Shown here one piece after another: positions 2,550 through 64,000 of a stretch of 64,000 nt of DNA. Each line of letters starts with the position of its first letter. Within the stretch, counting starts at the first letter, position 1. The DNA lies in the NCBI GenBank assembly GCA_965603515.1, contig CBFDDH010000001.1, positions 80,568-144,567 of the forward strand. Reading direction: 5' to 3'. The DNA is from an uncultured bacterium. Lineage in GTDB: Bacteria; Hydrothermota; Tepidihabitantia; SM23-42. The translations under genes were made by a program, and so were the position numbers. The notes below the pieces were generated by a model, which did no database searches, had not been told where the DNA came from, and saw only the letters and a list, made by a program, of their open reading frames with translations.

Positions 2550-3359
2550 TCAGCGCGTATTAATTGTGTTCAGTTCCTCGGCAAGTTCCTCTGAAGTATA
2601 ATCTTGTTTTCTAACGCGCAGATCGAAATACAAAAGGACTGAACCGAGCACAGCTACAGGCATCCCCACTATCGTACTAATCGCTACGCCAAGAACCGGG
2701 ATTATGCCAGCGATCGAATTGATACCCGCTACGATTACTGCAAACATCAAATTGATGCCGAACACGCGCCACCAATTACCTTTAACAAGAGCATAGCTCT
2801 TAGAAAATGCCTCGATAATACCCGTTCCCCTAATCATCACACACGGCAAAGCAAAACACCAACATACACCAAGATAAATGGCAAAAGGTATGCCGATTAC
2901 GGTCAGGACAAGAGCACCGAGTGCCAAACCAACAAGTATGCTCGTGCCCAACGCAGTGCCCAGTCGGGACCAAGCATACCTATATGAATCACTAAAACCA
3001 ATGTCTTTATCATAATACTGCGCAGCAACGAAATAAATCAAAGCGCATTGAACCAAAACACTGACTATGATAAAACCAATGTAGCCAAGCACGCCACCGA
3101 TAATTATATATGGTAATACGCTCATCATCCTGTCGCTCTCGCTGAGCAAAGGAAATAGAAAAAAACCCCCATATATTGCTACGAAAAAAAACGCATTAAG
3201 AACACCGGTGATCGCAGCGATCGCCCAAAGTTTCGTGTAATTGCTTTTATAGATACGAAAAGCCTCGGAAAGAAGGTCTTCGAGTTTCCTCGGACCGAAG
3301 CTGATTTCTTGCGTTGTATTCAATTCTGTAGCCATTAGAAACGAAGGTCTTTTGCCCAT
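2550..3359 (-). CDS. polytopic membrane protein of unknown function
   Basis: 269 aa, multiple hydrophobic helices, no recognisable catalytic motif. Confidence 0.4.
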   Translation of the reverse strand: MGKRPSFLMATELNTTQEISFGPRKLEDLLSEAFRIYKSNYTKLWAIAAITGVLNAFFFVAIYGGFFLFPLLSESDRMMSVLPYIIIGGVLGYIGFIIVSVLVQCALIYFVAAQYYDKDIGFSDSYRYAWSRLGTALGTSILVGLALGALVLTVIGIPFAIYLGVCWCFALPCVMIRGTGIIEAFSKSYALVKGNWWRVFGINLMFAVIVAGINSIAGIIPVLGVAISTIVGMPVAVLGSVLLYFDLRVRKQDYTSEELAEELNTINTR

Positions 3360-4516
3360 AAGTGGGCGTATTTTATCCCGCTCGCGGTATTGAATAATAC
3401 CACAGTTTCACTCTCGCGAATCCAATCTTGCTGGCGTAGGTATTTGAAGGCAACGAGGGTTGCTCCTCCTTCAGGACAACAAAAAATACCCTCGGTGTTT
3501 CCGATCTGCATTATCGCTTCGATCATTGCATCATCCGGAACCGCGATCGCCGTACCCTTGCTTTCCTTTAGCGTACGCAGAATCAAAAAATCACCGATCG
3601 CCGCCGGTACGCGCAAACCATCGGCAATGGTCTCTGCGTCACGCCACGGGGTTGCCGTAGCTTCCCCTTGATTGAACGCAGTTACGATCGGTGCACACCC
3701 TTTAGCTTGAACTGATACCAAACGCGGCAACTTCGATTTTATCCAACCAAGATTCTTGAGTTCTTCAAATGCCTTCCACATGCCGATAAGACCAGTGCCG
3801 CCACCAGTTGGGTAAATGATAACATCGGGTAAGTTCCAGTTAAGTTGTTCCGCCAGCTCAAAACCCATGGTTTTCTTGCCCTCTATACGATATGGTTCTT
3901 TGAGCGTTGACATGTCAAACCTGCTATATTGAGCTACATCATGAGCTGCCTGCTGCCCGCAGTGAGTAATATACCCCTCCACGAGTTTTACCTGAGCTCC
4001 TCTTGCTATGCATTCAATAACAAAGGTCTTGGGCACGTCCTTAGGCATATAAACAAAGGATTTCAAGCCACCGAGTGCCGCATACGCACTCATAGATACC
4101 GCGGCGTTACCAGCTGATGGCACCGCCAGTTCTTGTATCCCGAATTCACGTGCCCGGGATACCGCAACCGACATGCCGCGGTCCTTAAAGGAGCCGGTCG
4201 GATTCTGGCTTTCGTCCTTGATATAGAGATTGCCAAAATCCAAAACTTCACCGAGGTTTCGGGCATGGATCAATGGCGTGAACCCTTCACCGAGTGAAAG
4301 GATGCTCTTGTTATTCTGCAAGGGAAGCAATTCTTTATAACGCCACAGGTTTGGTGCACGTTTTGCTATATCCTCGCGTTTGACTGCCTTGCGAACTTTT
4401 TTCAGGTCATAAAGAACGACCAGAGGTTTACCACAAAACGAACAAAGATTCCAGCGTCTATCCGCCTCCAGCTTATTGCCGCATTTTGAGCACTCTAAGT
4501 GACTGACGAAAGCCAT
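3335..4516 (-). CDS. thrC: threonine synthase with N-terminal zinc ribbon
   Basis: 393 aa; CxxC...CxxC N-terminus, PLP-lysine motif GSFKDRG, fold-type II PLP enzyme, length and motifs of ThrC. Confidence 0.8.
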   Translation of the reverse strand: MAFVSHLECSKCGNKLEADRRWNLCSFCGKPLVVLYDLKKVRKAVKREDIAKRAPNLWRYKELLPLQNNKSILSLGEGFTPLIHARNLGEVLDFGNLYIKDESQNPTGSFKDRGMSVAVSRAREFGIQELAVPSAGNAAVSMSAYAALGGLKSFVYMPKDVPKTFVIECIARGAQVKLVEGYITHCGQQAAHDVAQYSRFDMSTLKEPYRIEGKKTMGFELAEQLNWNLPDVIIYPTGGGTGLIGMWKAFEELKNLGWIKSKLPRLVSVQAKGCAPIVTAFNQGEATATPWRDAETIADGLRVPAAIGDFLILRTLKESKGTAIAVPDDAMIEAIMQIGNTEGIFCCPEGGATLVAFKYLRQQDWIRESETVVLFNTASGIKYAHLWAKDLRF

Positions 4517-4550: not shown

Positions 4551-4594
4551 TCATCCCGGCAAAATTATATAGCCATCATGTCACTGCGTCACTA

Positions 4595-4678
4595 TAGCGT
4601 TATGATCGTTTAGACCGTTTTGATCGTTAATATCGTTGTTTTTCGCCCTACGCTTTACTCACTACGCCTTACGCTTTT
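4595..4678. repeat. 84 bp direct repeat, copy 2, immediately upstream of thrC promoter
   Basis: Identical to 291-374 by eye across all 84 bp. Confidence 0.9.
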
Positions 4679-4725: not shown

Positions 4726-5460
4726 CTACTTGTCTTTTATTTCTTCAAGTAGTTCAAGCGCTTCAGGCTTATCATCTAATACAAAATCAGCCATGTAGGT
4801 TGGATCCTGTATGTCGAGCAACCTCTTCAAATACCAACGTGCTTTCTCATAGTCCTTTTTCTTTATCCAGACTTTAGCCATATCAACGTAAAGCAAACTA
4901 TAATTAGAATCTATTTCAATACCCTTATTGAGCGCTTCCGAGGATTTATTCAGATTGCCACCTAGTAACCCTGGTAATTCATAGTACAACATCGCTTTCA
5001 CATCGAGCGCACCGGTATGTTCTGGATCCAGCTTCAGGATCTTATCTAGTTCTTTTTTTATCTCAGGGACTGATGCGAGAGAATTCAGCACGCCCTTTGT
5101 CTGCCCTATCCTACCGATATTAACAACATACCAAAAGTGAGCCCATTTAGAATTGCCATCGAGTTTAATCGCTTTTTTCGCGTGTTTCTTACCCGTTTCA
5201 TATAATGCAAGCTTGTCTTTCTTACTATTAGCTTCGTCCCCTAGCAGATAATAAATCCTGGAAAGTTCATAAAGAGCACGTACATTTTCCGGTTCTTGTT
5301 CAATTACGTTGCTGAGTACCTCAGCACTCTTCGCGAGGTTTCCGCTGTTCAAATGGCGCGTTCCGAATAACTCAATTGCATTATCGATAAGAGAATCACT
5401 TGATTGAGCAGTAATAAGAGATACTACAACGAATAGTCCTATTAAATAACGTCTTAACAT
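4726..5460 (-). CDS. TPR repeat protein with signal peptide
   Basis: 244 aa; hydrophobic N-terminus, repeated A/Y/L-rich 34-residue TPR-like units; SD AGGAGG upstream. Confidence 0.6.
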   Translation of the reverse strand: MLRRYLIGLFVVVSLITAQSSDSLIDNAIELFGTRHLNSGNLAKSAEVLSNVIEQEPENVRALYELSRIYYLLGDEANSKKDKLALYETGKKHAKKAIKLDGNSKWAHFWYVVNIGRIGQTKGVLNSLASVPEIKKELDKILKLDPEHTGALDVKAMLYYELPGLLGGNLNKSSEALNKGIEIDSNYSLLYVDMAKVWIKKKDYEKARWYLKRLLDIQDPTYMADFVLDDKPEALELLEEIKDK

Positions 5461-5474
5461 ATAACCTCCTCAGC

Positions 5475-5535
5475 ACAATAGTTATTGGGCTTGGGTTATG
5501 AAGCTGGAATCCAGCATTCAGACCAAACCCATATT
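5475..5535. repeat. G-rich-TIR intercistronic element, family 1 copy A (short)
   Basis: gttattgggcttgggttatgaagctggaatccagcattcagaccaaacccatattctatctc; between TPR gene start and deacetylase stop. Confidence 0.6.
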
Positions 5536-28256: not shown

Positions 28257-28274
28257 AAATGGGACAGGTTACTT

Positions 28275-29519: not shown

Positions 29520-29537
29520 AGCAACTCCTTTTCAAAA

Positions 29538-29610
29538 TGGTCATTGGGTTAGGTTAGGAAGCTAGAAAAGAATCCAGCATCCACACCCAAACCCATTTTC
29601 CATATTCTAT
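29538..29610. repeat. family 1 element copy B
   Basis: tggtcattgggttaggttaggaagctag...atccagcatccacacccaaacccattttccatattctat; fills spacer between HADH stop and thiolase start. Confidence 0.7.
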
Positions 29611-31056: not shown

Positions 31057-31845
31057 TTATCCGTTTGAATCTAAAGCCCACTTGGGCTTTCGCTTTTCCA
31101 GAAAAGCCTTCATGCCTTCTTTCGCTTCATCAGTAGAGAAAAGAATACTGAAGGCTTCCATTTCATAGGAATTCGCCGTTGTAAGATTTGCATCAATACC
31201 GCGATTGATCACGGTTTTGGCAACACGCACTGCAGTTGGACCAACCGCTGCTATTTTGTTTGCGATATCCTTTGCTTCATCCATGAGTTTATCAAAAGAA
31301 ACAACTCTATTTACTAAACCTATTCTCAACGCCTCCTGAGCGTCAATGAGATCGCCCGTGTAAATAAGCTCTTTTGCTTTTGCCGTACCCACTAATCTGG
31401 CAAGGCGCTGTGTTCCAGCATGCCCGGGGATCAAACCAAGTTTCACTTCAGGCTGACCTAATTTCGCCTTTTCAGAAACAATCCTTATGTCACAAGCCAT
31501 TGCAAGTTCACATCCCGAACCAAGAGCATAACCATTCACTGCCGCAATAACTGGTTTCTCCATATTTTCGATGTAGGATAAAACACGCTGACCGATTCGA
31601 CTGTATTCCCGGGCCTTAAAGACATCCATCTCAGATAAACGAGCGATGTCTGAACCTGAGACAAACGCCTTACCTTCACCAGTTATAATGATGACATAGA
31701 TGCTGTCATCTTCATCGAAACCCTGCATTGCCTTTTCGATCTCAAGTATTGTCTCCACGTTTACAGCATTCAAGACATCGGGCCGATTGATCTTGAGAAT
31801 CCCCAATCTGTCTTCATTTTCAACAATTATGTTATTAAAGGACAT
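31057..31845 (-). CDS. enoyl-CoA hydratase (crotonase)
   Basis: 262 aa; crotonase fold with oxyanion-hole segments AAVNGYALGSGCELA and catalytic Glu residues. Confidence 0.8.
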   Translation of the reverse strand: MSFNNIIVENEDRLGILKINRPDVLNAVNVETILEIEKAMQGFDEDDSIYVIIITGEGKAFVSGSDIARLSEMDVFKAREYSRIGQRVLSYIENMEKPVIAAVNGYALGSGCELAMACDIRIVSEKAKLGQPEVKLGLIPGHAGTQRLARLVGTAKAKELIYTGDLIDAQEALRIGLVNRVVSFDKLMDEAKDIANKIAAVGPTAVRVAKTVINRGIDANLTTANSYEMEAFSILFSTDEAKEGMKAFLEKRKPKWALDSNG

Positions 31846-32044
31846 CTTACCTCCTTCCAGATAAATACTAAATTCTGATCTCTTCAGCCTGAGGCTGATC
31901 CACCTCGGGTGGAAAATCGTACCTAAACAAATTCAAATGTTTTAAACGTTTCTTATTTTGTATTTCTGTCATTTGATATTGTTTAGGATTTAGTACTTAG
32001 ATATTGTCTACTCATTCATTCTGATCTCCTGAAAACACTCACCA
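31846..32044. repeat. AT-rich CCAAA/TTTAGG-armed intercistronic element, family 2, with twin-hairpin core (31885-31915)
   Basis: core cagcctgaggctgatccacctcgggtggaaaat; flanking ataaatactaaattctga ... gtttaggatttagtacttag inverted arms. Confidence 0.55.
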
Positions 32045-32512
32045 TCAGAACAGATCTGCAGCGATTGCACATATTTTCCCCAGCAACGCGTTGTCCTTAT
32101 CAGTAAAAGGGGAAAGAGTATATGAATCAATATCAAGCTCCCCGACAACCTGATCATTCTTCATTATAGGAAATACTATTTCGGACATCACCTTGACACT
32201 GCAGGACAAATAATTCGTTTCTTTTCTAATATCCTGAACCACAAATGGCTTTCTTATTACTGCAGCTTGTCCACAAATCCCTTCACCAAAAGCGATGCGG
32301 GTATGTTCAGTCGGTTCTCCGACAAAAGGTCCAAGAATGAGTTCCCTCTTTGATTGGTCAGCAATATAAAAGCCTACCCAATCATAATACGTTACATTAT
32401 CTTTAAGCAAATTACACGTTGCCGCTAGTTTTTCATCACGACTGAGCTTGCTATCGACAATTTCCTGGACGTTATTGATAATCTGCACAATCTCTTCAGA
32501 ATAGTCGGTCAT
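32045..32512 (-). CDS. GAF domain protein
   Basis: 155 aa; free-standing GAF fold pattern (small-ligand binding), no output domain. Confidence 0.55.
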   Translation of the reverse strand: MTDYSEEIVQIINNVQEIVDSKLSRDEKLAATCNLLKDNVTYYDWVGFYIADQSKRELILGPFVGEPTEHTRIAFGEGICGQAAVIRKPFVVQDIRKETNYLSCSVKVMSEIVFPIMKNDQVVGELDIDSYTLSPFTDKDNALLGKICAIAADLF

Positions 32513-32570: not shown

Positions 32571-32951
32571 CTACTTCCTTTTTTTCTTTTCCTTCGCCAA
32601 GTAATTCTCGAGTGCCTTATGCAGTGCATCAGCGCCAAGGTTTGAACAATGTAATTTCAGAGGTGGCAAACCTCCAAGTTCATCGACAACTGACTCATTA
32701 GTTATTTTCATCGCTTCCTCAACTGCTTTCCCTTTTGCCATCTCGCTCACGATACTAGAAACGGCAATCGCCGCACCACATCCAAAGGTCTTGAATCTTA
32801 CATCTGTAATAATACCGTTCTTAACTCTAATATAAAAGGTCATAACATCACCGCAGACAGGATTACCAACTTCACCGACACCGTCGGCATCCTTAATCTC
32901 ACCCACGTTACGTGGCTTCATAAAATGGTCCATCACTTTCTTACTGTACAT
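32571..32951 (-). CDS. Fe-S cluster assembly scaffold protein (IscU/NifU N-terminal type)
   Basis: 126 aa; three conserved Cys in GNPVCGD, FGCGAAIA, LHCS motifs. Confidence 0.8.
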   Translation of the reverse strand: MYSKKVMDHFMKPRNVGEIKDADGVGEVGNPVCGDVMTFYIRVKNGIITDVRFKTFGCGAAIAVSSIVSEMAKGKAVEEAMKITNESVVDELGGLPPLKLHCSNLGADALHKALENYLAKEKKKRK

Positions 32952-32953
32952 TA

Positions 32954-33451
32954 TTATTTCTCCTGCTCCAATTCCACTAATGGCTTAAGGGCTTCAACCT
33001 GATCACCTTCTTCATAGTTAATCCTTTTGACAATACCATCCCGCGGCGCGCGCAATTCATTTTGCATCTTCATTGCTTCAACTATCGCGAGCGTGGTTCC
33101 TTCCTTGACATCATCGCCAACCGCTACCATAACCTTCACTAGTAACCCAGGCATTAACGACTGCACACTATCACCCTTTTGAACCTGAGCACCAGCTCCT
33201 TTGAATACATTCCCTCTTTCCAAAACAAGCAAATAATAATCTCCGTTAACTGCCAAATATATAATATCTCCAGCTTGTGCATAATAGATATTGTTAAGTT
33301 TTTTGTTAAGTTTGAAAGAGACTATATTATCATATCTCGAATAGTTAACGATATCATAGTCCTTTCTATCAATAGTAACCTGATAACCACCATCAGATTT
33401 CTTGATTTTCGCTGTATGGGTCTTATTTAGATGTTTGAATTTATATTCCAT
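32954..33451 (-). CDS. biotin carboxyl carrier protein-like (biotinyl domain with ~90 aa N-terminal extension)
   Basis: 165 aa; C-terminal EAMKMQNEL biotinylation motif; 3 nt downstream of IscU gene stop. Confidence 0.7.
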   Translation of the reverse strand: MEYKFKHLNKTHTAKIKKSDGGYQVTIDRKDYDIVNYSRYDNIVSFKLNKKLNNIYYAQAGDIIYLAVNGDYYLLVLERGNVFKGAGAQVQKGDSVQSLMPGLLVKVMVAVGDDVKEGTTLAIVEAMKMQNELRAPRDGIVKRINYEEGDQVEALKPLVELEQEK

Positions 33452-33595: not shown

Positions 33596-35104
33596 CTAGT
33601 GTCCACATATTTCCCAATGACCCAATTCTTGCCATGGAGTCGTCGTGTGGCGAACCTGCGCCGATTTGGCGAGGGTTTGAACAGCAACCACTGCGCTTCT
33701 TGTTATCTTTACCAAAGAAGCAGCAACTAAAGCCTCCGTTATCTTATCATGTTGAGGGATCAGAGCTTCCTCATTATCATCAATAAAATGCGTATCGTAT
33801 TCGCCAGTTATGAACTTCTCTGTATCCACGATGCGTTTCAAAAAGCCGATATTGGTTTTAATACCGAGGATAATATAGTTTTCCAAGGCTTTGGACATAC
33901 GGGCGATAGAGATTTCTCTTGTCTCAGCCAAGGTTATCAATTTAGAAAGTATCGGATCATAATGGGGCGGCACATCCCAGCCTTGATATATCCCTGAATC
34001 TACTCTGATACCTGGCCCACTCGGTTCAAGGAGAAACAGGATTTTGCCAGGCGACGGCATGAAGTTACTGTCCGGATCTTCAGCGTAAATACGTGATTCT
34101 ATTGCATGCCCGCGCTGACTTATGTCTTTTTGCCGGAACTCCAATTCCCCTCCGGCAGCAATCAGGATTTGATGACGGACTATATCTACACCAGTAACCA
34201 TCTCCGTAATAGGATGCTCAACTTGAACCCGCGCGTTCACTTCCAGAAAATAGAATTTCCTGTTATGGTCAACGAGAAACTCAACTGTACCAGCATTCGT
34301 ATAATCAGCAGCTTCAATAACGCTTTTTGCCGCTTCACCCATTTTAGCACGCAGAACATTATCGAGGGCTGGCGAAGGTGTCTCCTCAACTATCTTTTGG
34401 TGACGACGTTGAATAGAACACTCGCGCTCGTACAAATGCACAACATTACCATGAGTATCCCGAATAACTTGAAACTCAATATGCCGCGGGTTCTGGATAT
34501 ATTTCTCAAGGTAAACCGTAGCATCACCAAAGGCGCTCTGAGCCTCTCTCTGTCCAGCTGCAATACTGGCCTCAAGTTCCTTTTCACTACGAACAACTCT
34601 CATACCTTTACCGCCACCACCCATGGACGCCTTAACAATAACTGGGTAACCTACTTGATCCGCCATACTTCTATACGCAGCTAAATCTGCACTACTGGCT
34701 TCCATGCCCGGGATAATCGGCACATCAACCCGTTTTACTGTATTGCGCGATGCCACCTTATCACCGACAAGGATCATCGCCTTGGAACTTGGTCCGATAA
34801 AGACAATCCCAGCATCTTCACAGGCTTTCACAAACAATGCATTTTCTGCCAAAAAACCATAACCTGGATGAATTGCTTGAGCACCGGTTCGACGTGCTTG
34901 CTCAATGATAGTCTTAATGTTCAAATAGCTCGTCTGAGGCGCCGGTTCGCCAATGCAGACCGCCTCATCCATATGCCAAAGGTGGCGTGAGCTGACATCA
35001 ACCGTGGAATATACGCCGGTTGCTGCAATACCCATTTCATGGCATGCGCGGGCGATGCGAATTGCAATCTCACCACGGTTGGCAATTAGTATTTTCTTAA
35101 ACAT
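33596..35104 (-). CDS. biotin carboxylase subunit of acyl-CoA carboxylase
   Basis: 502 aa; MFKKILIANRGEIAIRIARA N-terminus, ATP-grasp domain, biotin carboxylase C-domain; C-terminal ~40 aa of ORF may be read-through of weak similarity. Confidence 0.9.
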   Translation of the reverse strand: MFKKILIANRGEIAIRIARACHEMGIAATGVYSTVDVSSRHLWHMDEAVCIGEPAPQTSYLNIKTIIEQARRTGAQAIHPGYGFLAENALFVKACEDAGIVFIGPSSKAMILVGDKVASRNTVKRVDVPIIPGMEASSADLAAYRSMADQVGYPVIVKASMGGGGKGMRVVRSEKELEASIAAGQREAQSAFGDATVYLEKYIQNPRHIEFQVIRDTHGNVVHLYERECSIQRRHQKIVEETPSPALDNVLRAKMGEAAKSVIEAADYTNAGTVEFLVDHNRKFYFLEVNARVQVEHPITEMVTGVDIVRHQILIAAGGELEFRQKDISQRGHAIESRIYAEDPDSNFMPSPGKILFLLEPSGPGIRVDSGIYQGWDVPPHYDPILSKLITLAETREISIARMSKALENYIILGIKTNIGFLKRIVDTEKFITGEYDTHFIDDNEEALIPQHDKITEALVAASLVKITRSAVVAVQTLAKSAQVRHTTTPWQELGHWEICGH

Positions 35105-35217
35105 AAATCAAGTTCTTGAAACTTGTCCCGATTTATCATTGTTGATTATATAGTATAAGTAAATCGTGGATCCCGCATAGCGGGAGGATTTGGTTCTTGG
35201 GATTTGCGTTTTGGCAT
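35105..35217. repeat. family 2-related spacer (tttgg arm only)
   Basis: ggatttggttcttgggatttgcgttttggcatc. Confidence 0.3.
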
Positions 35218-36420: not shown

Positions 36421-36440
36421 TGCACCCCTTTTTGCAGTAA

Positions 36441-36540
36441 TGGTTATTGGGTTAGGGGTAAGATACTAGATTTCAAGCATCCATACCTATCTTCTATCTT
36501 TTTTTGTAGCATCCAAACCTAAACCCATCTTCTATATGTC
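36441..36540. repeat. family 1 element copy C
   Basis: tggttattgggttaggggtaagatactagatttcaagcatccata...catccaaacctaaacccatcttctatatg. Confidence 0.75.
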
Positions 36541-39890: not shown

Positions 39891-39900
39891 ACCAGCCTCC

Positions 39901-40947
39901 TTATTCGGACATTCTGATCTTACCCCGATACTTGGCGTACTGTCCATAATCAAGGTAGATACGATTGTTCTCAAGCATCTCTTTGAGCTTCGCAGCTTTA
40001 TCGCGCACTTCATCAATTCGATCAGTCATCTTAAATATAAATGCATCGCTACCTGCACCTGAACCAAAAGAAACGAGCATTATCAACTCACCTGGTTTGG
40101 CAATATCGAGCGTCGCAGAAAACCCAGTGGGTGACGAGCCTGAATAGGTATTACCCATTAATGGAACTATCCAACCCGCGTCAATCTGTTCCTTGGTAAA
40201 TCCCAATCTCTTAGCCACGGCTAATGGAAATTTACCATTTGGCATGTGGAAAATCGCGTGGGCAAAATCGCTGGGTTTATAGCCGCTTTTATCAAGAATT
40301 GCCTTTGCCGCACCCAACTCATGTTTGAAATAAGCAGGCTCGCCAGTGAATCGCCCACCATGAAGCGGATAAAACGCACCTTCTCGGCGCCAGAAATCAG
40401 GTGTATCTGTTGTATAAGAAAACGTATCCAGGACCTCAGCAATAATGCCTTCTTTTCCGAAAATGAATGCCGAACCGCCGGCTGCGGCAGAAAATTCAAG
40501 GGCATCACCTGGTGCACCCTGCGAAGTGTCAGCACCAATGGCGAGTGCATACTTTACAAGATCAGCCTTTACCAAACCATGGGCAACAAACATTGCTTCG
40601 GTGCCTGCCTTGCAGGCAAATTCATAATCCGCTATATGGACATTCGGCACAACACCCAAAGCCTCAGCCACTACAGTACCAGATGGTTTCACGGCATAGG
40701 GATGTGATTCTGAACCGATGTACAATGCGCCGATCTCAACCGGGTCAATATTAGCTCTTTTTAGCGCATTACGTGCAGCTTCCACTGATATGGTTATCGT
40801 ATCCTCATCCATTCCAGGCACGGTCTTTTCCTTGAGCATCAGACCTCGTTTTACTGTCTCGGAATCTCTGCCCCACTGATGGGCAATTTTCTCAACCTTA
40901 ATCCGATATCTTGGTAAATAAGAACCATAGCCAACAACGCCAACCAT
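39901..40947 (-). CDS. hydroxymethylglutaryl-CoA synthase (archaeal/KAS-III-like type)
   Basis: 348 aa; [17 protein letters not shown]-terminus, catalytic Cys in EFACKAGT context, typical size of archaeal HMGCS; forms thiolase/HMGCS/DUF35 trio. Confidence 0.7.
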
Positions 40948-40964
40948 TAGACCTCCTCACCAAA

Positions 40965-41070
40965 TGGTTATTGGATTTGGGTTAGGATGCTGGATATAAT
41001 CAATAAATAAAATCTAGCTTCCAAACCCATCTTCCATCTTTTTTCTAGCATCCAAACCTAAACCCATCTT
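40965..41070. repeat. family 1 element copy D
   Basis: tggttattggatttgggttaggatgctggat...tctagcttccaaacccatcttccatctttttt ctagcatccaaacctaaacccatcttctata; internal tandem sub-units. Confidence 0.75.
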
Positions 41071-42240
41071 CTATATTTTAGATAGGGCTTGTTCTAAATC
41101 AGCAATCAGATCATCAACATGTTCAAGACCAACCGATATTCTAACAAAACCAGGATTGATCCCGCACTCTCGCAGCTCTTCATCTGAATACGTTGAATGG
41201 GTCATTGAAGCGGGATGCTCAATGAGTGTATCTACGTCACCCAGACTCACTGCAAGAATGCACAACTCTACTGAGTTCATTATTGTCTTTCCAGCTTCCT
41301 TACCACCCTTCACATCAAACCCAATCATGCCACCAAAATCGCTCATCTGTTTCTTTGCTAATTCATGATCCGGGTGCGAGGTAAGACCAGGGTAATAAAC
41401 CTTCTCAATCTTGTCATGCTTTTCAAGATACTCTGCGATCTTCATGGCAGTTTCACAGTGTCGGTCCATTCTCACAGCTAAGGTCTTTAGACCACGCAGA
41501 ACAAGCCAAGCATTAAAGGGTGAATTACAGGCGCCGATCTCTTTTGCGTCTTCCCAAAGGTGATGCATGAAATCCTTTTTCCCAACGACAACTCCACCTA
41601 TGATATCGCCGTGCCCACTAAAATATTTAGTCATTGAATGAAGCACGATGTCAGCACCGAGTTCTACTGGTCTTTGGAGATATGGAGTAGCAAAAGTATT
41701 GTCAACACACAGCGGGATATTTCTGGCGTGGGAGATCTCTGAACATCGGGCGATATCGACAATCTTCAAAGTCGGATTTGCCGGCGTCTCAGTAAAGATC
41801 AAACGCGTATTCTCCTTAATACAAGAACCCAGTTGATCTGCATCTGCCGTATCACAGAATGTCACCTCAATACCCATCTTTGGTAGAATGCTCTTGAATA
41901 ATGCAAAAGTACCACCATAGATGGTATCATCAGAAACAACGTGTTCACCGGTTTTAGTTAGTGTCACAACGACGTTAAAAATGGCAGCGAGACCAGATGC
42001 AAAAACCACCCCGGCCTCAGTAGATTCCAACAAAGCAATCTTGCTTGCCAGAAGATCGGTCGTCGGATTGCTAAGTCTTGTATAGATATGACCTTTTTCC
42101 TCTTGCTTGAAAAGACGCGCACCGTGTTCAGCGTTGCGGAATGCAAAAGTCGATGTTTGATAAATCGGCGGCGCAAGAGCACCGGTTTCTTTATCAGGAT
42201 GCTGACCACCGTGTACGATCTTTGACTCAATATGCATCAT
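41071..42240 (-). CDS. Cys/Met metabolism PLP-dependent enzyme (methionine gamma-lyase / cystathionine gamma-synthase family)
   Basis: 389 aa; PLP lysine region SMTKYFSGHGD, fold-type I gamma-family. Confidence 0.75.
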   Translation of the reverse strand: MMHIESKIVHGGQHPDKETGALAPPIYQTSTFAFRNAEHGARLFKQEEKGHIYTRLSNPTTDLLASKIALLESTEAGVVFASGLAAIFNVVVTLTKTGEHVVSDDTIYGGTFALFKSILPKMGIEVTFCDTADADQLGSCIKENTRLIFTETPANPTLKIVDIARCSEISHARNIPLCVDNTFATPYLQRPVELGADIVLHSMTKYFSGHGDIIGGVVVGKKDFMHHLWEDAKEIGACNSPFNAWLVLRGLKTLAVRMDRHCETAMKIAEYLEKHDKIEKVYYPGLTSHPDHELAKKQMSDFGGMIGFDVKGGKEAGKTIMNSVELCILAVSLGDVDTLIEHPASMTHSTYSDEELRECGINPGFVRISVGLEHVDDLIADLEQALSKI

Positions 42241-42389
42241 TCCTCCCTATTGCAAACACCTAAGAATCCAAAATTCCCAAATTCTTCACCCTGAGGCTGA
42301 TCCACCTCGGGCGGAAAATTAGTGCTCTGATACACTGATGTTCTGATAACATAATATTCTTCACTTTAGGCATTTAGGTGTTTAGGTAT
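42241..42389. repeat. family 2 element with twin-hairpin core (42288-42318)
   Basis: aaacacctaagaatccaaaattcccaaa ... ccctgaggctgatccacctcgggcggaaaat ... tttaggcatttaggtgtttaggtatctagg; inverted arms about 15 bp. Confidence 0.55.
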
Positions 42390-42800
42390 CTAGGCATTTT
42401 TGTCTTTTTCGGTTAATTCAATCAAAACACCACCCATATCCTTTGGATGGATAAATGCTATCTTGTTCCCCCCCGCGCCAATTCTCGGAACCTCATCGAT
42501 CAACCGGACATTGTGACTCTTCATCTCGGCTAGTACCTTCTCAATATCATCAACCCGAAAACACAGATGATGCAATCCTTCACCCCTTTTTTCTATGAAT
42601 TTAAAAACCTGGCTCTCTTCACTTGTCGGTTCTACTAATTCAATATGGGTTCCGCTGATATCCAACTTGGCTACTTTGACCTTTTGATCCTCAACCTCTT
42701 CGAGATTCGCCAAGCCCAAACCCAACGCATCTTTCCATACATACAATCGTTCTTCAATAGATTTAACTGCGATGCCTATATGATCTAGTTTCATATTCAT
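42390..42800 (-). CDS. methylmalonyl-CoA epimerase (VOC/glyoxalase family)
   Basis: 136 aa; paired beta-alpha-beta-beta-beta modules with His/Glu metal ligands (HIGIAV...HIELVEP...HLCF...ELTE). Confidence 0.7.
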   Translation of the reverse strand: MNMKLDHIGIAVKSIEERLYVWKDALGLGLANLEEVEDQKVKVAKLDISGTHIELVEPTSEESQVFKFIEKRGEGLHHLCFRVDDIEKVLAEMKSHNVRLIDEVPRIGAGGNKIAFIHPKDMGGVLIELTEKDKNA

Positions 42801-45298: not shown

Positions 45299-45317
45299 TC
45301 AAAACCTCCTTGCTAAA

Positions 45318-45425
45318 TGGTTATTGGGTTAAGGTTAGGACGCTGGATTTCAAACATCCATAGTCAAACCTGTCTTCTATCTTTCTCTAGTTTCCAAACC
45401 CATCTTCCATCTTTTTTTTAGGTAT
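45318..45425. repeat. family 1 element copy E
   Basis: tggttattgggttaaggttaggacgctggatttcaaacatccatagtcaaacctgtcttctatctttctctagtttccaaacccatcttccatctttttttta. Confidence 0.75.
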
Positions 45426-46976
45426 CTAAAATATCGATCTTTCCTTATATTCACCATGGACATCCCTTAGTGTATCTGATATTTCACCAATAGTAGCATA
45501 GGCTTTCACGCACGCCAAGATTGGTTCCATCAAGTTCTCATTGTCAATTGCTAATCCCTCTAATTTTTTCAGCAGCGATCTTACCTTTAGGTTATTACGC
45601 CTAGCTTTGACACGTTTAGTCCTTTGCAGCTGTTTCTTCAAGGTTTTAGGCGAAACCCTCATTGTTGTGAACTTCCTCCCTTTATCAGAAGACACGAACT
45701 TGTTTACGCCAATCACACTTATATCATCTTGCTCAATAGCTTTTTGATACTCATACGCACTGCGGTGAATTTCTTCCTGAAAATATCCGTTTTCAATAGC
45801 TACCAGGGCACCACCCATTGAGTCAATCTTATCCAGATAGTCGTTCACCTGCTCCTCTAATCTGCTAGTCAACGATTCAACATAGTAGGATCCAGCCAGG
45901 GGATCAATAACTTCCGGGATCTTACTTTCATAAGCGATCATCTGTTGAGTACGTAATGCCAATTTCACTGATTCTTCGGTGGGCAGGGTCAAGGCTTCAT
46001 CGCGCGAATTCGTATGGAGACTCTGGGTCCCGCCCAGAACTGCGGCGAGTGCCTGTAATGCAACACGTATCGCATTATTATCAGGTTCCTGGGCAGTCAA
46101 TGTTGAACCGGCAGTCTGAGTGTGGAATCGAAGCATCCTCGATTTTGGATTCTTCGCATTGAATCGCTCTTTCATGACACGCGCCCAGATCCTCCTGGCC
46201 GCTCTGAACTTAGCAATCTCTTCAAAAAAATTATTGTGTGCGTTAAGGAAAAATGAAATACGCGGCGCAAATGAATCCACATCAAGTCCACCCCGTTCAA
46301 TTGCATATTGCACATAAGTCATTCCATTTGCGAGTGTGAAAGCAAGCTCTTGTACTGCTGTCGCACCAGCTTCTCTTATGTGATAACCAGATACTGAAAT
46401 GGTATTCCACCTGGGCAGGGACTTACTGCAATATTTCATGATATCGACCGTAATCTTTATCGATGCTGCAGGTGGATATATGTAAGTGCCGCGCGCAATA
46501 TACTCCTTGAGGATATCATTCTGAACCGTACCGGATAGTCTCTCTTTTGGCACACCCTGCTTTTCGGCAACTGCGATATACATTGCCAAGAGAACTGCTG
46601 CGGTGGCATTGATCGTCATCGACGTACTCACCCTGTCAAGCGGTATTCCTTTAAATAATATCTCCATATCTTCAAGTGTATCAATGGCAACACCGGTCTT
46701 ACCCACCTCACCAGCGGCAAGTCTATGATCTGAGTCATAACCCATCTGGGTTGGTAAATCAAATGCAACGGATAAACCTGTCTGCCCCTGTTTCAGTAAA
46801 TAACGGTAGCGACGATTCGACTCTTCTGCAGTCGCATAACCGGCATACTGCCGCATAGTCCATAGCCGACCCGTATACATACTTGGATATACGCCGCGTG
46901 TATAAGGAAATTCACCCGGGTTACCCAAATCTTTTTTGTAGTCTATATCTTTTATGTCATCAGGAGAAAAAAGCAT
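45426..46976 (-). CDS. methylmalonyl-CoA mutase family catalytic (TIM-barrel) subunit, copy 1
   Basis: 516 aa; [34 protein letters not shown] motifs; no B12-binding domain in this polypeptide. Confidence 0.85.
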
Positions 46977-47489: not shown

Positions 47490-48989
47490 CTAATTACTCC
47501 TCATCATCGCCTTACGCCCGTACATCTTCCATGAACTTGATAACTTGCGCCCACTTGGTTTTCCTACCACAACCTGCTTCTCCTTGATGATTTTTCCTAT
47601 AGCGGCAGCTATTGCAACAACTTCATGATACTCTTTTTTATAAACTACCTTACCCAAAACTTTGTCGATAAAAGTAGTGTCATACTCACCTTTCACGAAT
47701 TCAGGGGTGTTCATTACCAAAATATGGAAAGGTATTGAGGTCTTAATTCCTCTAATCGTATATTCTTTCAGGGCACGCTTTGTTCTGGAAATAGCCTCTT
47801 CCCGGGAAGGTGCCCAGACAAGTAACTTAGCAATCAATGGGTCGTAATATATCGGCACTTCAAAACCTTCATAGACACCGCTATCAAGTCTTATACCCGG
47901 ACCGCCAGGTTCAACGATCTCTACGATCCTACCAGTCGACGGCACAAAATTGTTTTGTGGATCTTCAGCAGAAATACGACATTCAATAGCCGCACCGTTC
48001 ATCTTTATTTCTTCTTGTTTTAACGATAGTTGTTGCCCAGCAGCGATCTTGAACTGCTCCTTTACAATATCAATACCAGTAATCAACTCAGTAACTGGGT
48101 GTTCCACCTGTAACCGGGTATTCATTTCAAGAAAATAGAAGTTCCTGTTGTTGTCAACCATGAATTCAACCGTACCGGCGTTCGTGTATTTTGATGTCTT
48201 TACCGCCTGAACTGCTGCCTGCCCCATCTTGGCACGCAAATCCAGGTCCATGATCGCAGACGGCGATTCCTCGATCAATTTCTGGTGTCGTCGCTGGACT
48301 GAGCATTCTCTCTCAAAAAGATGTATGACATTACCGTGATTATCTGCAAGAATTTGGAATTCAATGTGACGGGGTGCTTCAAGGAATTTCTCAATAAATA
48401 CGGTTGGGTTACCAAAAGCAGACTGCGCTTCGCTGATAGCCTGTTTCAAGGCGCCAGTCAACTCCCTCATCTCCCTTACAACACGCATCCCCTTTCCGCC
48501 ACCACCACCCGCTGCTTTTATAAGTACAGGAAAACCTATCTGTTGAGCCATAATTTGAGCTTCTGATTCATCAGCCACGGCACCGTCACTACCTGGAATA
48601 ACTGGTATCCCCACGTCGCTCATCGTCTTCTTTGAAATAATCTTATCACCCAATAGCCTTATTGCTTTTGACGTTGGACCAATGAACACAATACCTGATG
48701 CTTCACAGGCTTCAGCAAAATCCGTGTTCTCAGCAAGAAATCCATAGCCTGGATGAATTGCCTCTACCTTTGCACGTTTGGCAACCTCAATGATTCTATC
48801 AATCCTTAGATAACTTTCAGTAGCCGGAGCTCGACCAATATGATATGCTTCATCGGCATAACGCGTATGGAATGCGCTTTGGTCCGCATCCGAATAAACA
48901 GTTACCGAAGTAATATCCATTTCACGACAGGTACGCAAAACCCGCACTGCTATTTCACCACGATTAGCGACTAATATTTTTTTAAACAT
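47490..48989 (-). CDS. biotin carboxylase (paralog 2)
   Basis: 499 aa; MFKKILVANRGEIAVRVLRT, ATP-grasp and BC C-domain. Confidence 0.9.
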   Translation of the reverse strand: MFKKILVANRGEIAVRVLRTCREMDITSVTVYSDADQSAFHTRYADEAYHIGRAPATESYLRIDRIIEVAKRAKVEAIHPGYGFLAENTDFAEACEASGIVFIGPTSKAIRLLGDKIISKKTMSDVGIPVIPGSDGAVADESEAQIMAQQIGFPVLIKAAGGGGGKGMRVVREMRELTGALKQAISEAQSAFGNPTVFIEKFLEAPRHIEFQILADNHGNVIHLFERECSVQRRHQKLIEESPSAIMDLDLRAKMGQAAVQAVKTSKYTNAGTVEFMVDNNRNFYFLEMNTRLQVEHPVTELITGIDIVKEQFKIAAGQQLSLKQEEIKMNGAAIECRISAEDPQNNFVPSTGRIVEIVEPGGPGIRLDSGVYEGFEVPIYYDPLIAKLLVWAPSREEAISRTKRALKEYTIRGIKTSIPFHILVMNTPEFVKGEYDTTFIDKVLGKVVYKKEYHEVVAIAAAIGKIIKEKQVVVGKPSGRKLSSSWKMYGRKAMMRSN

Positions 48990-52575: not shown

Positions 52576-52597
52576 AAATCATCCTCCTTCATCAAAA

Positions 52598-52697
52598 TGG
52601 TCATTGGGTTAGGGTTTAGCCCGCCCCGCTTCGCGGCACGAGGTCGGGGAAACGAGAAAAAAATCCAGCATCCAAACCTAAACCAATCTTCCATCTA
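52598..52697. repeat. family 1 element copy F with GC-rich 36-bp internal insert
   Basis: tggtcattgggttagggtttag then cccgccccgcttcgcggcacgaggtcggggaaacg then aaaaaaatccagcatccaaacctaaaccaatcttccatcta. Confidence 0.7.
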
Positions 52698-54329
52698 TTA
52701 GAATATGATCGGTTCATGGTATTCACCGAATTCTTCTTTCAATGTACCACACATTTCACCAAGCGTGGTATAAGCGCGTACGCAATCCAGAATCTTAGGC
52801 ATCAGGTTAGACCCATCAGCTGCGGCTTTGTGTAATCTCCCGAGTGTTTCTTTCACTTTCTTATTATTGCGTTCTCGTTTGATGCCTTTAAGTGCCTTCA
52901 CCTGATCACGTTCAACTTGTTTTGGAATTCTCAGAAGCTCCATTTCTGCCTTGCCCTCTTCTTCGAGTATGTTCACTCCCACATGATATTTCTCTTTCTT
53001 CTCCAAACTCTTCTGGTATTGATATGCACTTCTCGATATTTCGCGTTGAAAAAATCCCTTATCAATCGCTTTAACCACACCACCCATTTTATCTATCGCA
53101 GCAAAGTACTTGTAAGCTCCTTGCTCAAGTTCATTAGTCAAAGTCTCAACGTAATATGAACCACCGATTGGGTCAATAGTATTGGCAACACCCGTTTCAT
53201 AAGCTATCAATTGCTGGGTGCGCAAAGCGATCTTGACCGCGTTTTCAGTTGGCAGGGCATAGGTTTCATCCATAGAGTTGGTGTGGAGTGATTGGGTTCC
53301 TCCGAGTACTGCCGCGAGTGCCTGGAAAGCAGTACGCATGATATTATTCTGTGGTTGTTGAGCAGTCAACGTGCAACCAGCGGTCTGGGTGTGAAACCTC
53401 ATCAAATATGAACGGGGGCTTTGAGCATTATACTTATCCTGCATAAGGCGTGCCCAAATCCGCCGCGCTGCGCGGTATTTAGCGATCTCCTCAAAGAAAT
53501 CAAGGTGTGAGTTGAAGAAAAAAGAGAGCCTTGGGGAAAACTTGTCGACTGATAGACCTGCTTTTATACCGTACTCAACATAAGTTAAACCGTTCTTCAG
53601 GGTAAAAGCAAGCTCCTGCAGCGCAGTAGAACCAGCTTCTCTTATGTGATAACCAGATATCGAAATTGTATTCCATCTAGGGACATGCTCGGTACAATAT
53701 GCCATAATGTCGGTAATTATACGCATCGATGGTTCTGGAGGGTATATCCACGTCTTTTGAGCTTGGTATTCTTTCAGCATATCATTTTGAATAGTTCCGG
53801 TTAGAAACTTCATCGGCACACCCTGTTTTTCACCGACCACGATGTACATGGCCAGAAGCATTGCGGCAGGCGGGTTAATCGTCATTGAAGTCGATATCTG
53901 GTCGAGTGGTATGCCATGAAATAATATCTCCATGTCTCTAAGCGTATCAATCGCAACCCCACACTTACCCACTTCTCCTCGTGCAAGTAAGTCATCAGAA
54001 TCACGACCGTACAAAGTGGGAAAATCAAAAGCAACAGAGAGCCCAGTCTGTCCATGGTTCAGAAGGTACTTGTAGCGCTTATTTGTGTCCTTTGGTGTAC
54101 CAAAGCCCGAGAATTGACGCATTGTCCAGAGCCGACCCCGATACATGTTCGTGTAGACCCCGCGCACATATGGAAATTCACCCGGGTAACCCAGATCTCG
54201 GTCATAATCAAAATCTCTAATGCTATCTGGTGTATACAACGTTTTCGTCACTCTCCCAGAGGCTGTCGTGAATTTCCCATCTCGCTCCTTGCAGGTCTTA
54301 AGCTTCTTGTCCCAAATATCTTTCTTCAT
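52698..54329 (-). CDS. methylmalonyl-CoA mutase family catalytic subunit, copy 2
   Basis: 543 aa; [34 protein letters not shown] motifs; paralog of 45426-46976 product. Confidence 0.85.
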   Translation of the reverse strand: MKKDIWDKKLKTCKERDGKFTTASGRVTKTLYTPDSIRDFDYDRDLGYPGEFPYVRGVYTNMYRGRLWTMRQFSGFGTPKDTNKRYKYLLNHGQTGLSVAFDFPTLYGRDSDDLLARGEVGKCGVAIDTLRDMEILFHGIPLDQISTSMTINPPAAMLLAMYIVVGEKQGVPMKFLTGTIQNDMLKEYQAQKTWIYPPEPSMRIITDIMAYCTEHVPRWNTISISGYHIREAGSTALQELAFTLKNGLTYVEYGIKAGLSVDKFSPRLSFFFNSHLDFFEEIAKYRAARRIWARLMQDKYNAQSPRSYLMRFHTQTAGCTLTAQQPQNNIMRTAFQALAAVLGGTQSLHTNSMDETYALPTENAVKIALRTQQLIAYETGVANTIDPIGGSYYVETLTNELEQGAYKYFAAIDKMGGVVKAIDKGFFQREISRSAYQYQKSLEKKEKYHVGVNILEEEGKAEMELLRIPKQVERDQVKALKGIKRERNNKKVKETLGRLHKAAADGSNLMPKILDCVRAYTTLGEMCGTLKEEFGEYHEPIIF

Positions 54330-62827: not shown

Positions 62828-62847
62828 AATAACCTCCTAACAATGCT

Positions 62848-62941
62848 GGTTATTGGGTTAGGGTTAGGACACTGGATTTCAAGCATCCATACTCAAGCCT
62901 GTCTTCTATCTTTCTCTAGCTTCCAAACCCAAACCCACCAT
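62848..62941. repeat. family 1 element copy G (most regular copy)
   Basis: tggttattgggttagggttaggacactggatttcaagcatccatactcaagcctgtcttctatctttctctagcttccaaacccaaacccaccatcta. Confidence 0.8.
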
Positions 62942-64000
62942 CTATCTTGTAAGTTCTCTTGCTATAACAATCTTCTGGATTTCCGATGTCCCCTCATAGA
63001 GCTCAAGAATCTTGGCATCACGGTAGATCCTTTCAATAGGATATTCTTTTGTATAACCATAACCACCGTGAATTTGAACTGCCTTGCGAGCAACATCTAC
63101 AGCCATTGAAGCACCATAATACTTTGCCATTGCCGATTCCAGCGAGAACCTCGTCATCCCTTTGTTCTTACAGTGCCCGGCAAAGTAAACGAGCATCCTT
63201 GCGGCTTGAATCTCAGTTGCCATTTCAGCAAGCATTGACTGCACCATTTGGAAATTACATATCGGCTGCCCGAATGCCTTGCGCTCTTTTGAATATCGCA
63301 CCGCCTCATCGAGTGCGCTCTGGGCAATACCGACCGCCTGCGCACCGATATCAATCCTTGAGACATCGAGCGTGTTCATACAAATCTTGAAACCTTCACC
63401 TTCTTTACCCAATAGGCTTTCTTTAGGTATTCTTACATCCTCGAAAATCATTTCACAGTTAGCTGTTGCCCTAATACCCATCAAATCCTCATGCTTACCA
63501 AGACTAAACCCCGGGATATCTCTCTCTACGATAAAGGTGCTTATACCCTTGTGTTTCAATTCCTTGTTAGTATAGGCAAAAACCACGTAGACCCCTGCTT
63601 CACCGGCATTTGTGATAAATCTTTTTGTGCCATTAAGGATATAGGCATCACCGTCCAACCGTGCCGTAGATTCCATAGCCGCCACATCAGACCCAGCATT
63701 CGGCTCGGTTAAACCAAATGCCCCGAGTTTCTCACCTTTGCAGAGCAACGGTAGATATTTCTTCTTCTGCTCTTCGTTGCCAAACTGCATAATAGGATAG
63801 CCAACGAGCGAATTGTTAACTGCGACAATAACACCAGTCGATGCGCAAGCCCTGGAAATCTCTTCGACCGCAATAGCAAGTGAGATGTAATCAAAACCAG
63901 CACCACCGTATTCCTCCGGAATAATAATGCCAAGCAGACCCAGCTTGGCCATCTTTTTGATATTATCCCAGGGAAACTCAGCAGATTTGTCTATATCTGG
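62942..64000 (-). CDS. acyl-CoA dehydrogenase (short/branched-chain type), N-terminus beyond window end
   Basis: C-terminal 336+ aa of ACAD fold incl. catalytic Glu region YEGTSEIQKIVIAREL; ORF open to position 64000. Confidence 0.85.
   Translation of the reverse strand, partial: PDIDKSAEFPWDNIKKMAKLGLLGIIIPEEYGGAGFDYISLAIAVEEISRACASTGVIVAVNNSLVGYPIMQFGNEEQKKKYLPLLCKGEKLGAFGLTEPNAGSDVAAMESTARLDGDAYILNGTKRFITNAGEAGVYVVFAYTNKELKHKGISTFIVERDIPGFSLGKHEDLMGIRATANCEMIFEDVRIPKESLLGKEGEGFKICMNTLDVSRIDIGAQAVGIAQSALDEAVRYSKERKAFGQPICNFQMVQSMLAEMATEIQAARMLVYFAGHCKNKGMTRFSLESAMAKYYGASMAVDVARKAVQIHGGYGYTKEYPIERIYRDAKILELYEGTSEIQKIVIARELTR

Follow-up and report, generated by a model that had tools for sequence, protein, structure and literature searches.

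We analyzed a stretch of 64,000 nucleotides from an uncultured bacterium of the Hydrothermota (contig CBFDDH010000001.1, positions 80,568 to 144,567; here called the window, with other contigs given by locus number, L022 and so on). Two of its intergenic spacers contain a 30-nt twin palindrome that recurs nearly unchanged in no fewer than four bacterial lineages unrelated to one another. On balance, we favor the view that the two sites hold copies of a non-coding mobile double hairpin, 30 bp long and non-autonomous, that resembles the repetitive extragenic palindromic (REP) elements and is transcribed passively, and that would be a bacterial counterpart of the double-hairpin elements of mitochondria.

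The recurrence of the motif in the window is real and far exceeds the level expected by chance. A repeat search found a 37-nt pair (Table 1) identical at 35 of 37 positions (95%). A degenerate 29-nt pattern, allowed up to three mismatches, matched only 31889-31917 and 42291-42319 and had no match in 100 shuffles, and a covariance model run with its filters off detected two copies only in the 64 kb, scoring 59.8 bits (copy 1) and 56.2 bits (copy 2). Beyond the 37-nt stretch, the two spacers could not be aligned except for short AT-rich words and the Shine-Dalgarno (SD) sequence. An initial annotation of this DNA, made from the letters alone, had reported recurrence at two sites, which our searches bear out. 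It had described a 31-nt motif at 31885-31915; the motif as written spans 33 nt (31885-31917), its end having been placed 2 nt short, and the natural unit is the 30-nt core. Its description of two perfect mini-hairpins holds for copy 1 but not for copy 2, in which each hairpin has one non-pair (C.C and A.C on the plus strand, G.G and G.U on the minus strand).

The core consists of two directly abutting 15-bp palindromes, each with 6-bp arms around a 3-nt center and with arms that are similar between the two. On the gene strand it reads TCCGCC-cga-GGCGGA, followed at once by TCAGCC-tca-GGCTGA, and the family consensus is GAGGCTGATCCGCCTCGG. As DNA, either strand is predicted to fold into a twin hairpin (-11.3 kcal/mol, z about -4), as is the RNA of the sense strand (-17.2 kcal/mol, z = -3.7). 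The similarity of the arms also permits a single 9-bp hairpin instead, which has the lowest predicted energy for the antisense consensus as RNA and which window copy 2 is predicted to adopt. The commoner form of hairpin 1 has the stem CCGCC/GGCGG, of which the CCACC/GGTGG of the window is a compensatory variant, and the CCGCC/GGTGG intermediates can form a G.U pair on the sense strand only, where the antisense strand would have A.C. Among the alignment rows, the third stem pair of hairpin 1 is G-C in 12, G.U in three and A-U in two, and it is never broken on the sense strand. An outer closing stem (P1) around both hairpins was considered and rejected: it is attractive in AT-rich copies but fails in GC-rich hosts, and only 58% of its cells pair.

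Nearly identical copies were found in distantly related bacteria. A scan of one genome per species, with an 18-mer of the rarer A variant present in the window, gave 34 loci, mostly chance matches in high-GC genomes. The whole element was matched in two, a metagenome-assembled genome (MAG) labelled 'Ca. Stahlbacteria' (L025; 43% GC) that is 95-97% identical to the window at 35.7-42.7 kb, and a Binatia MAG (L022; 53% GC). A scan of 241 million metagenome records with the pattern CCTGAGGNTGATCCNCCTCGGG, which has 20 specified bases, gave 13 loci, 11 of them genuine, and all genuine matches also keep the eight core bases that the pattern left free (TCCG and CTGA). The 30-mer occurs with zero to two changes in host contigs of 40-56% GC. 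By the labels of the MAG records, which are the source of the taxon names used here, L044, L054 and L055 are Ca. Nomurabacteria of the candidate phyla radiation (CPR), L022 is Ca. Binatia, and the closest homologue (97%) of a polymerase that contains the element at L039 is Ca. Zixiibacteriota. Further copies thus exist in other strains and in other phyla. A sequencing adaptor or assembly artefact was rejected as the source: the same copy appears, with point variants, in independent ENA, Logan, JGI and NCBI assemblies, and one copy is in frame in a protein gene. A search of papers for the literal core string returned unrelated primers only.

The element is a discrete unit that is present or missing at otherwise homologous sites. 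At L039 it lies in frame inside a DNA polymerase IV (dinB) gene, where it encodes QPEADPPRAG, and in the 97% homologue of this polymerase (L053) it is present in frame with one loop change. Exactly these 10 residues are missing from the 91%-identical protein P0002 (L052) and from all seven aligned homologues of 51-55% identity, and solved DinB structures have a gap of 10-13 residues at the same loop. In the nucleotide alignment of dinB, the difference is a 30-nt insertion, TCAGCCTGAGGCTGATCCGCCTCGGGCGGG, consisting of the two palindromes and nothing else. A second comparison concerns the spacer between rpsZ and a PhzF-family gene, which contains the element in L050 and L048 and is otherwise almost identical in L060 and L062, which do not have it. 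Here the difference is 35 nt, made up of the 30-mer and small changes in a flank that already resembles the flanks of other copies, and it fits gene conversion from another copy.

The distribution of the element also differs among strains that are 95-98% identical to the window in coding DNA, where it occupies different spacers of the same operon. It is upstream of genes for a 382-aa thiolase and a 535-aa carboxyltransferase in L025 and L063, upstream of a 348-aa gene in L041, upstream of nifU in L051, and upstream of a 414-aa thiolase gene in L063-65. The copy upstream of the hydratase gene, present in the window, is missing in L063-L066. Clean empty sites were also sought in relatives of the Binatia and L047 loci; relatives without the element were found, with spacers diverged beyond alignment, and these give no exact boundaries.

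Individual copies decay, as seen in window copy 2 and in a relative of the Nomurabacteria. In three Nomurabacteria contigs, identical copies precede the ATG of a pilin gene by 8 nt. In a relative with a 92%-identical PilC, a longer nested hairpin replaces hairpin 1 on a conserved base that has undergone a C-G to T-A change, and loop 2 is changed; a relative at 83% has no hairpin. Copies in place thus evolve fast. The identity across phyla is therefore unlikely to stem from long vertical conservation and would point to recent horizontal spread or to repeated copying from a conserved master. In the 92% relative (L067 and L068 2498-2553), the sequence in place of hairpin 1 is TCCGCTTC-ACCCCGCCATAGCGGGGCAAG-GAAGCGGA, a second palindrome nested on the conserved stem base, and hairpin 2 is kept with the loop TTA.

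The genes next to the element are functionally unrelated, and its position and orientation relative to them vary. The neighbors include genes of acyl-CoA metabolism, pilC and pilin genes, rpsZ and PhzF, pyrG, dinB and others; further contexts are a VOC gene convergent with a gene of the amine-oxidase family (heme-biosynthesis-like), and a cobalamin adenosyltransferase gene and fabI. With orthologous sites counted once, the TCCGCC reading is on the strand of the neighboring genes at 13 of 16 loci, seven of these 13 being from the lineage of the window, and on the opposite strand at three (L022, L050 and L039). GC skew tracks gene orientation at every locus, making orientation with respect to transcription inseparable from orientation with respect to replication. 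Distances to the start codon range from 8 to about 70 nt across copies, and seven different spacers in the lineage of the window have the element 35-60 nt upstream of a start codon. Other copies are 3' of genes (L046, L047 and L050) or inside a coding region (L039), so that intergenic, 3'-of-gene and in-frame coding positions are all tolerated. The initial annotation had named copies in coding regions or far from start codons as evidence of chance similarity. Such copies were found; they refute a leader function and leave the reality of the motif unaffected.

Both window copies are probably intercistronic rather than in true 5' leaders, because scans of their spacers found neither a sigma-70-like promoter on the gene strand nor a terminator. 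All genes near the two copies are on the minus strand, and the core ends 38 nt (copy 1, enoyl-CoA hydratase gene) and 45 nt (copy 2, the gene for a Cys/Met-metabolism enzyme dependent on pyridoxal phosphate, PLP) before the ATG, so the placement upstream of a crotonase gene and a methionine gamma-lyase-like gene was roughly as first annotated. Three other assignments were rejected. A sigma-54 promoter has the wrong GG/GC spacing by eye. An intrinsic terminator (GC-rich hairpin plus U tract) does not fit, with no terminator-like site at either copy and with flanks AAGA and AAAT. A CRISPR repeat does not fit copies that are 10.4 kb apart in the window and at least 1.1 kb apart elsewhere, each in a different spacer.

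If the element is mobile, single-stranded DNA (or RNA) would fold into two 6-bp GC-rich triloop hairpins, and these would be the substrate of a trans-acting enzyme. The enzyme would most plausibly be an HUH/Y1 nuclease, either a REP-associated tyrosine transposase (RAYT) or an IS200-like one, or it could be another structure-specific recombinase. Within the lineage of the window, the element may also have spread by gene conversion between repeat-rich intergenic modules that share its flanks, which would explain the sense orientation 35-60 nt upstream of start codons. Once between co-transcribed genes, it would be transcribed and might incidentally stabilize or punctuate the mRNA, as REP elements do, without this being the reason for its existence.

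Several observations weigh against a mobile element. No target-site duplication was seen at the dinB or rpsZ sites, nor any consistent target, and the rpsZ-PhzF indel is 35 nt rather than a clean 30 and needs changes in the flank as well. No transposase or other mobilizing enzyme was found linked to the element at the loci studied, and a RAYT-like gene in a sister strain (see below) was rejected as its partner, since the repeats flanking that gene are different. A search of viral contigs, phages and plasmids for the element, as possible vehicles, found no copies. The copy number is low, with two in 64 kb of the window and 11 genuine matches in the metagenome scan. Since the search patterns fixed 18-20 core bases, the core looks invariant in part because of how the copies were found. 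Finally, the sense bias and the compensatory change at the variable stem pair, with its G.U form on the sense strand only, are also predicted by a selected RNA.

Such an RNA, a cis-acting structure in polycistronic mRNA that serves as an end-protecting or processing signal, is an explanation that we take seriously but consider rather unlikely. It could stabilize the downstream cistron in the manner of a 5' cap, once the long inverted-repeat stem next to it has been cleaved, stabilize the upstream cistron at its 3' end, or tune access to the nearby ribosome-binding site. The bias of 13:3 loci toward the mRNA strand (two-sided binomial p about 0.02) and the unbroken third pair of hairpin 1 argue for it, as do the RNA fold itself, the place of the element 35-60 nt before a start codon in seven spacers of the window's lineage, and its location, in the window as in L046, with a gene on one side and a long inverted repeat on the other. 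The Nomurabacteria are also consistent with it: the copy there is close to the pilin ATG, and the 92% relative keeps two hairpins, with a C-G to T-A change at the foot of a longer hairpin 1. However, near-identical strains do without the element, one copy is in frame in dinB, three loci have it antisense, and window copy 2 is damaged in both hairpins. A function of structure only would leave the identical loops and stems across phyla unexplained, particularly with a copy in the Nomurabacteria that diverged fast in place, and the enclosing outer stem is unsupported. No Rfam family matched at gathering score across the window, and around copy 1 (E up to 10) there was only noise, with E about 2. 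As for the bias, a single lineage supplies seven of the 13 sense loci, and there the spread of an oriented module would keep the orientation.

Two further explanations are much less probable. A binding site for a conserved DNA-binding protein, similar to parS or CIRCE and with two dimers on the adjacent palindromes, is improbable, although two perfect abutting 15-bp palindromes with similar half-sites (TCCGCC/TCAGCC), few copies per genome and identity across phyla are what such a site would have, and both orientations and the copy inside a gene are compatible with a site in DNA. Against it, genes of unrelated function flank the sites, sites appear and disappear between near-identical strains, the element entered dinB as a discrete 30-nt insertion and not by drift, no candidate protein gene is linked, and binding to DNA would not require a compensatory change in pairing within a strand. 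We give the least weight to pairing of GAGGYGGAUCAGCC on the mRNA strand with the 3' end of 16S rRNA, by which the motif would be a ribosome stand-by or decoy site, as the initial annotation suggested, or a STAB-SD-like stabilizer upstream of the true SD. Most copies are in the sense orientation, many are upstream of start codons, and the plus strand does resemble CCUGCGGCUGGAUCACCUC of the 16S 3' end, but with more differences than the one shifted base first claimed: the alignment needs two gaps and matches in 16 of 20 columns for the window variant and 15 of 20 for the consensus, against a generic consensus 16S 3' end that may not be that of the host. Among random twin palindromes of the same composition, 0.3-0.45% equal the window variant, but 3-4% match as well as the consensus, which has C for U in GAGG(C/U)G (GAGGCGG, not GAGGUGG). 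The SD-like bases are sequestered in hairpin 1 in the predicted fold, each window copy has a separate SD, and pairing beyond the anti-SD would need helix 45 of 16S rRNA to open. Because of the rate among random palindromes, the sequestration in a stem and the variable position and orientation, including copies 3' of genes, antisense copies (3 of 16) and one in a coding region, the resemblance looks largely coincidental and does not support a stand-by or decoy role.

A mobile double hairpin, the explanation we favor, has its closest known parallels in REP elements and in the hairpin elements of mitochondria. REPs are 20-40 bp long, lie between unidirectional or convergent open reading frames (ORFs) and occasionally inside replication or repair genes, and as dimers encode 20-30 residues; an unpaired GTAG or CGTC tag at one end is their mark (PMC3733652). 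The element is like REPs and REPINs in being a short GC-rich palindromic stem-loop (two 15-bp units with 6-bp stems and 3-nt loops), mainly extragenic between unidirectional or convergent ORFs with rare intragenic copies. Like them, it is often dimeric, transcribed with an operon, found in frame in a replication/repair gene, and sporadic between strains. Unlike them, it has no GTAG, CGTC or their complements in the 30-mer, nor consistently in its flanks; its units are perfect palindromes with triloops, abutting head to tail; and it is not seen with a cognate RAYT gene flanked by the repeat, the RAYT-like gene having an unrelated 19-bp inverted repeat. REPs number tens to thousands of copies per genome; the counts for the element come from contig stretches, with two copies in the 64 kb of the window and three each in 8 kb of L025 and 16 kb of L063, and from the 11 genuine matches of the metagenome scan. 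Most REP families are restricted to a species or genus, whereas this element is near-identical in the CPR, a Zixibacteria-like bacterium, Binatia and another lineage.

The hairpin elements of mitochondria consist of 15- and 18-nt units, form double hairpins in tandem, and are inserted in genes and kept in transcripts (PMC2800124), and the GC clusters of yeast merge, shuffle and pass between species (PMC4478555). The element shares with them two adjacent hairpins, sporadic occurrence and tolerance within genes (PMC2800124). In both cases the units measure about 15-45 nt and stand out as GC-rich islands from AT-rich spacers, similar units combine in tandem or by nesting, and exchange is horizontal, with no known dedicated enzyme (PMC2800124, PMC4478555). 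It differs in its hosts: the mitochondrial elements are organellar and lineage-restricted, whereas the element is in contigs with bacterial operons, and its hosts are bacteria, free-living or episymbiotic, that belong to several phyla. The palindromic elements of Rickettsia (RPEs) are likewise palindromic and in frame in protein genes. RPEs are much longer than 30 bp and are confined to one genus. A passage of PMC3733652 cites their in-frame insertions in functional protein genes. Miniature inverted-repeat transposable elements (MITEs) are also non-autonomous, and in the lineage of the window the element may travel inside an inverted-repeat module of roughly 140 nt. However, MITEs are 70-300 bp long with terminal inverted repeats of 15-30 bp and a target-site duplication, whereas the discrete unit here is 30 bp, with no separate terminal repeats and no duplication seen. 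STAB-SD and stand-by SD leaders have in common with some copies an SD-like GAGG(U/C)G upstream of the genuine SD; in the element this stretch is sequestered in a stem and weaker in the consensus, and its position and orientation are not conserved.

More tentatively, and as a possibility that we consider less likely than not, the element could represent a new family of ultra-small bacterial mobile hairpins (30 bp, or 15-bp units) that move horizontally between distant phyla, including the CPR, insert as exact units even into essential-type genes, and are mobilized by a structure-specific enzyme. If so, no smaller discrete mobile unit would be known in bacteria, and the element would be their equivalent of the double hairpins of mitochondria. 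Communities in sediment and groundwater would then have a means, enzymatic or recombinational, of copying so small a sequence with base-pair precision across phyla, and the element would be a concrete and very short substrate with which to find that copying activity. The hairpin-element phenomenon would extend beyond organelles and the species-specific REPs, where it has mainly been documented so far. For the window, a mobile element would explain why two unrelated genes share a 'leader motif' without shared regulation, and annotators in general should not take a motif upstream of genes for a regulatory RNA just because it is conserved and folds well.

In the window, copy 1 lies in a larger module, whose coordinates are listed with those of the other features in Table 1. 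The 138-nt module has an outer stem of 31988-31999 with 31862-31873 and a long inner stem of 31970-31987 with 31922-31939, and the twin hairpin is between the inner stem and the outer 3' arm. Sister strains have parts of the module in further spacers, in one case with a gene for a four-helix-bundle protein inserted in its loop; by BLAST, window 31845-32027 matches L025 at 3588-3681, 3144-3224 and 5344-5489, and L041 at 1132-1278. The module may itself be mobile as a unit. The 30-nt core is independent of it, since the core occurs alone and in other phyla. Of the three roles proposed in the initial annotation, the core of a MITE-like element comes closest, in that copy 1 is within a nested inverted-repeat module that recurs in sister strains; a site for an RNA-binding protein, the remaining role, is possible.

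Table 1. Positions of the twin-palindrome element and nearby features in the window.
Feature	Coordinates	Strand	Remarks
Twin-palindrome element copy 1, 30-nt core	31884-31913	-	Both hairpins perfect; third pair of hairpin 1 is the A-T variant; minus-strand reading TCCACC-cga-GGTGGA (31913-31899), then TCAGCC-tca-GGCTGA (31898-31884)
Twin-palindrome element copy 2, degenerate, 30-nt core	42286-42315	-	Two non-canonical pairs flagged by the covariance model; minus-strand reading TCCGCC-cga-GGTGGA (G.U at pair 3), then TCAGCC-tca-GGGTGA (G.G mismatch)
Shared 37-nt stretch, first copy	31881-31917		30-nt core plus lineage-specific flanks TCT and AAAT
Shared 37-nt stretch, second copy	42283-42319		Repeat search
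Nested inverted-repeat module, 138 nt, enclosing copy 1	31862-31999	-	Fold, z = -2.7
Enoyl-CoA hydratase gene, downstream of copy 1	31057-31845	-	Own SD GGAAGGAGG at 31850-31858
Cys/Met-metabolism PLP enzyme gene (methionine gamma-lyase-like), downstream of copy 2	41071-42240	-	Own SD AGGGAGGA at 42242-42249
GAF-domain gene, upstream of copy 1, co-directional	32045-32512	-	
Glyoxalase/VOC-family gene, upstream of copy 2, co-directional	42390-42800	-	
Solitary 15-nt palindrome TCCCGC-ata-GCGGGA	35171-35185		Spacer between a second enoyl-CoA hydratase gene and the biotin carboxylase gene

Solitary palindromes of 15 nt also occur in the lineage of the window. Those of the format TC-NNNC-N3-GNNN-GA (for example TCCCGCataGCGGGA and TCAGCCataGGCTGA) are found alone, in tandem or nested, at the window site listed in Table 1, at L063 4834, 6215 and 10945, at L060 10855, and at L039 4216 and 4241, and 15-nt palindromes in spacers are far above the shuffle expectation. 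The one at L060 10855 is directly before an SD, and the Zixibacteria-like contig has nested and tandem units of the same format. The palindrome in the window may be a single-unit relative of the element, and the twin hairpin, in turn, may be a dimer within a broader family of units.

The intergenic spacers of the operon are insertion hot spots. In sister strains, genes for four-helix-bundle or 23S rRNA intervening-sequence proteins (PF05635, TIGR02436) are inserted between operon genes, at L025 1685-2059 and 3206-3568 and at L063 974-1336 and 8545-8985, and one of them sits in the loop of an inverted repeat that matches window 31922-31987. The window has none; its spacers matching these sites are near 40948-41070, 39900-40016 and 32951-32954. 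A link between the element and these genes was rejected, since they occur only in L025, L063 and L065, beside one copy and not others, with none in the window or in other phyla.

The sister strains also have a gene for a RAYT-like Y1 transposase between the thiolase and BPL genes of the operon, at L064 4952-5657 (222 aa) and, truncated, at L063 13897-14567 (163 aa). The protein matches Pfam Y1_Tnp and scores 75.9 bits with the NCBIfam model REP_Tyr_transpos, against a cut-off of 80. A perfect 19-bp inverted repeat, AGGGGACAGGCTACTTTTT / AAAAAGTAGCCTGTCCCCT, borders the gene; it contains GTAG and is unlike the twin hairpin. A sister strain thus has this gene in an operon where the window does not, so enzymes of this kind are active in the lineage, a point in favor of a mobile element. 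The empty site in the window, 28257-28274, is an uninterrupted thiolase-BPL junction with a single repeat-like copy, AAGTAACCTGTCCCA.

Other repeats in the window are of different kinds. Word repeats of the TTAGG(G)/CCTAAA type build intergenic regions and form long imperfect inverted repeats, at 29532-29605, 36435-36537, 40959-41076, 45312-45421, 52592-52696 and 62847-62947 (families D1, D3, D7, D9, D10 and I3). A perfect 85-nt direct repeat at 290-374 and 4594-4678 brackets about 4.3 kb of minus-strand genes and could be the mark of a duplication or of an integrated segment. Two pairs of stretches are 71-72% identical (34152-34876 with 48037-48761, and 45926-46481 with 53195-53747) and correspond to paralogous gene pairs. 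The first pair includes the biotin carboxylase gene (33596-35104), which suggests duplicated modules of the acyl-CoA carboxylase type.

At the rpsZ-PhzF locus, the PhzF-family gene interrupts the S10-spc cluster of ribosomal-protein genes after a zinc-type rpsZ (L060 6300-6680, also L050 and L062). It is preceded by a perfect TTGACA-N17-TATAAT box that ends 6 nt before the ATG, an arrangement that suggests a leaderless transcript.

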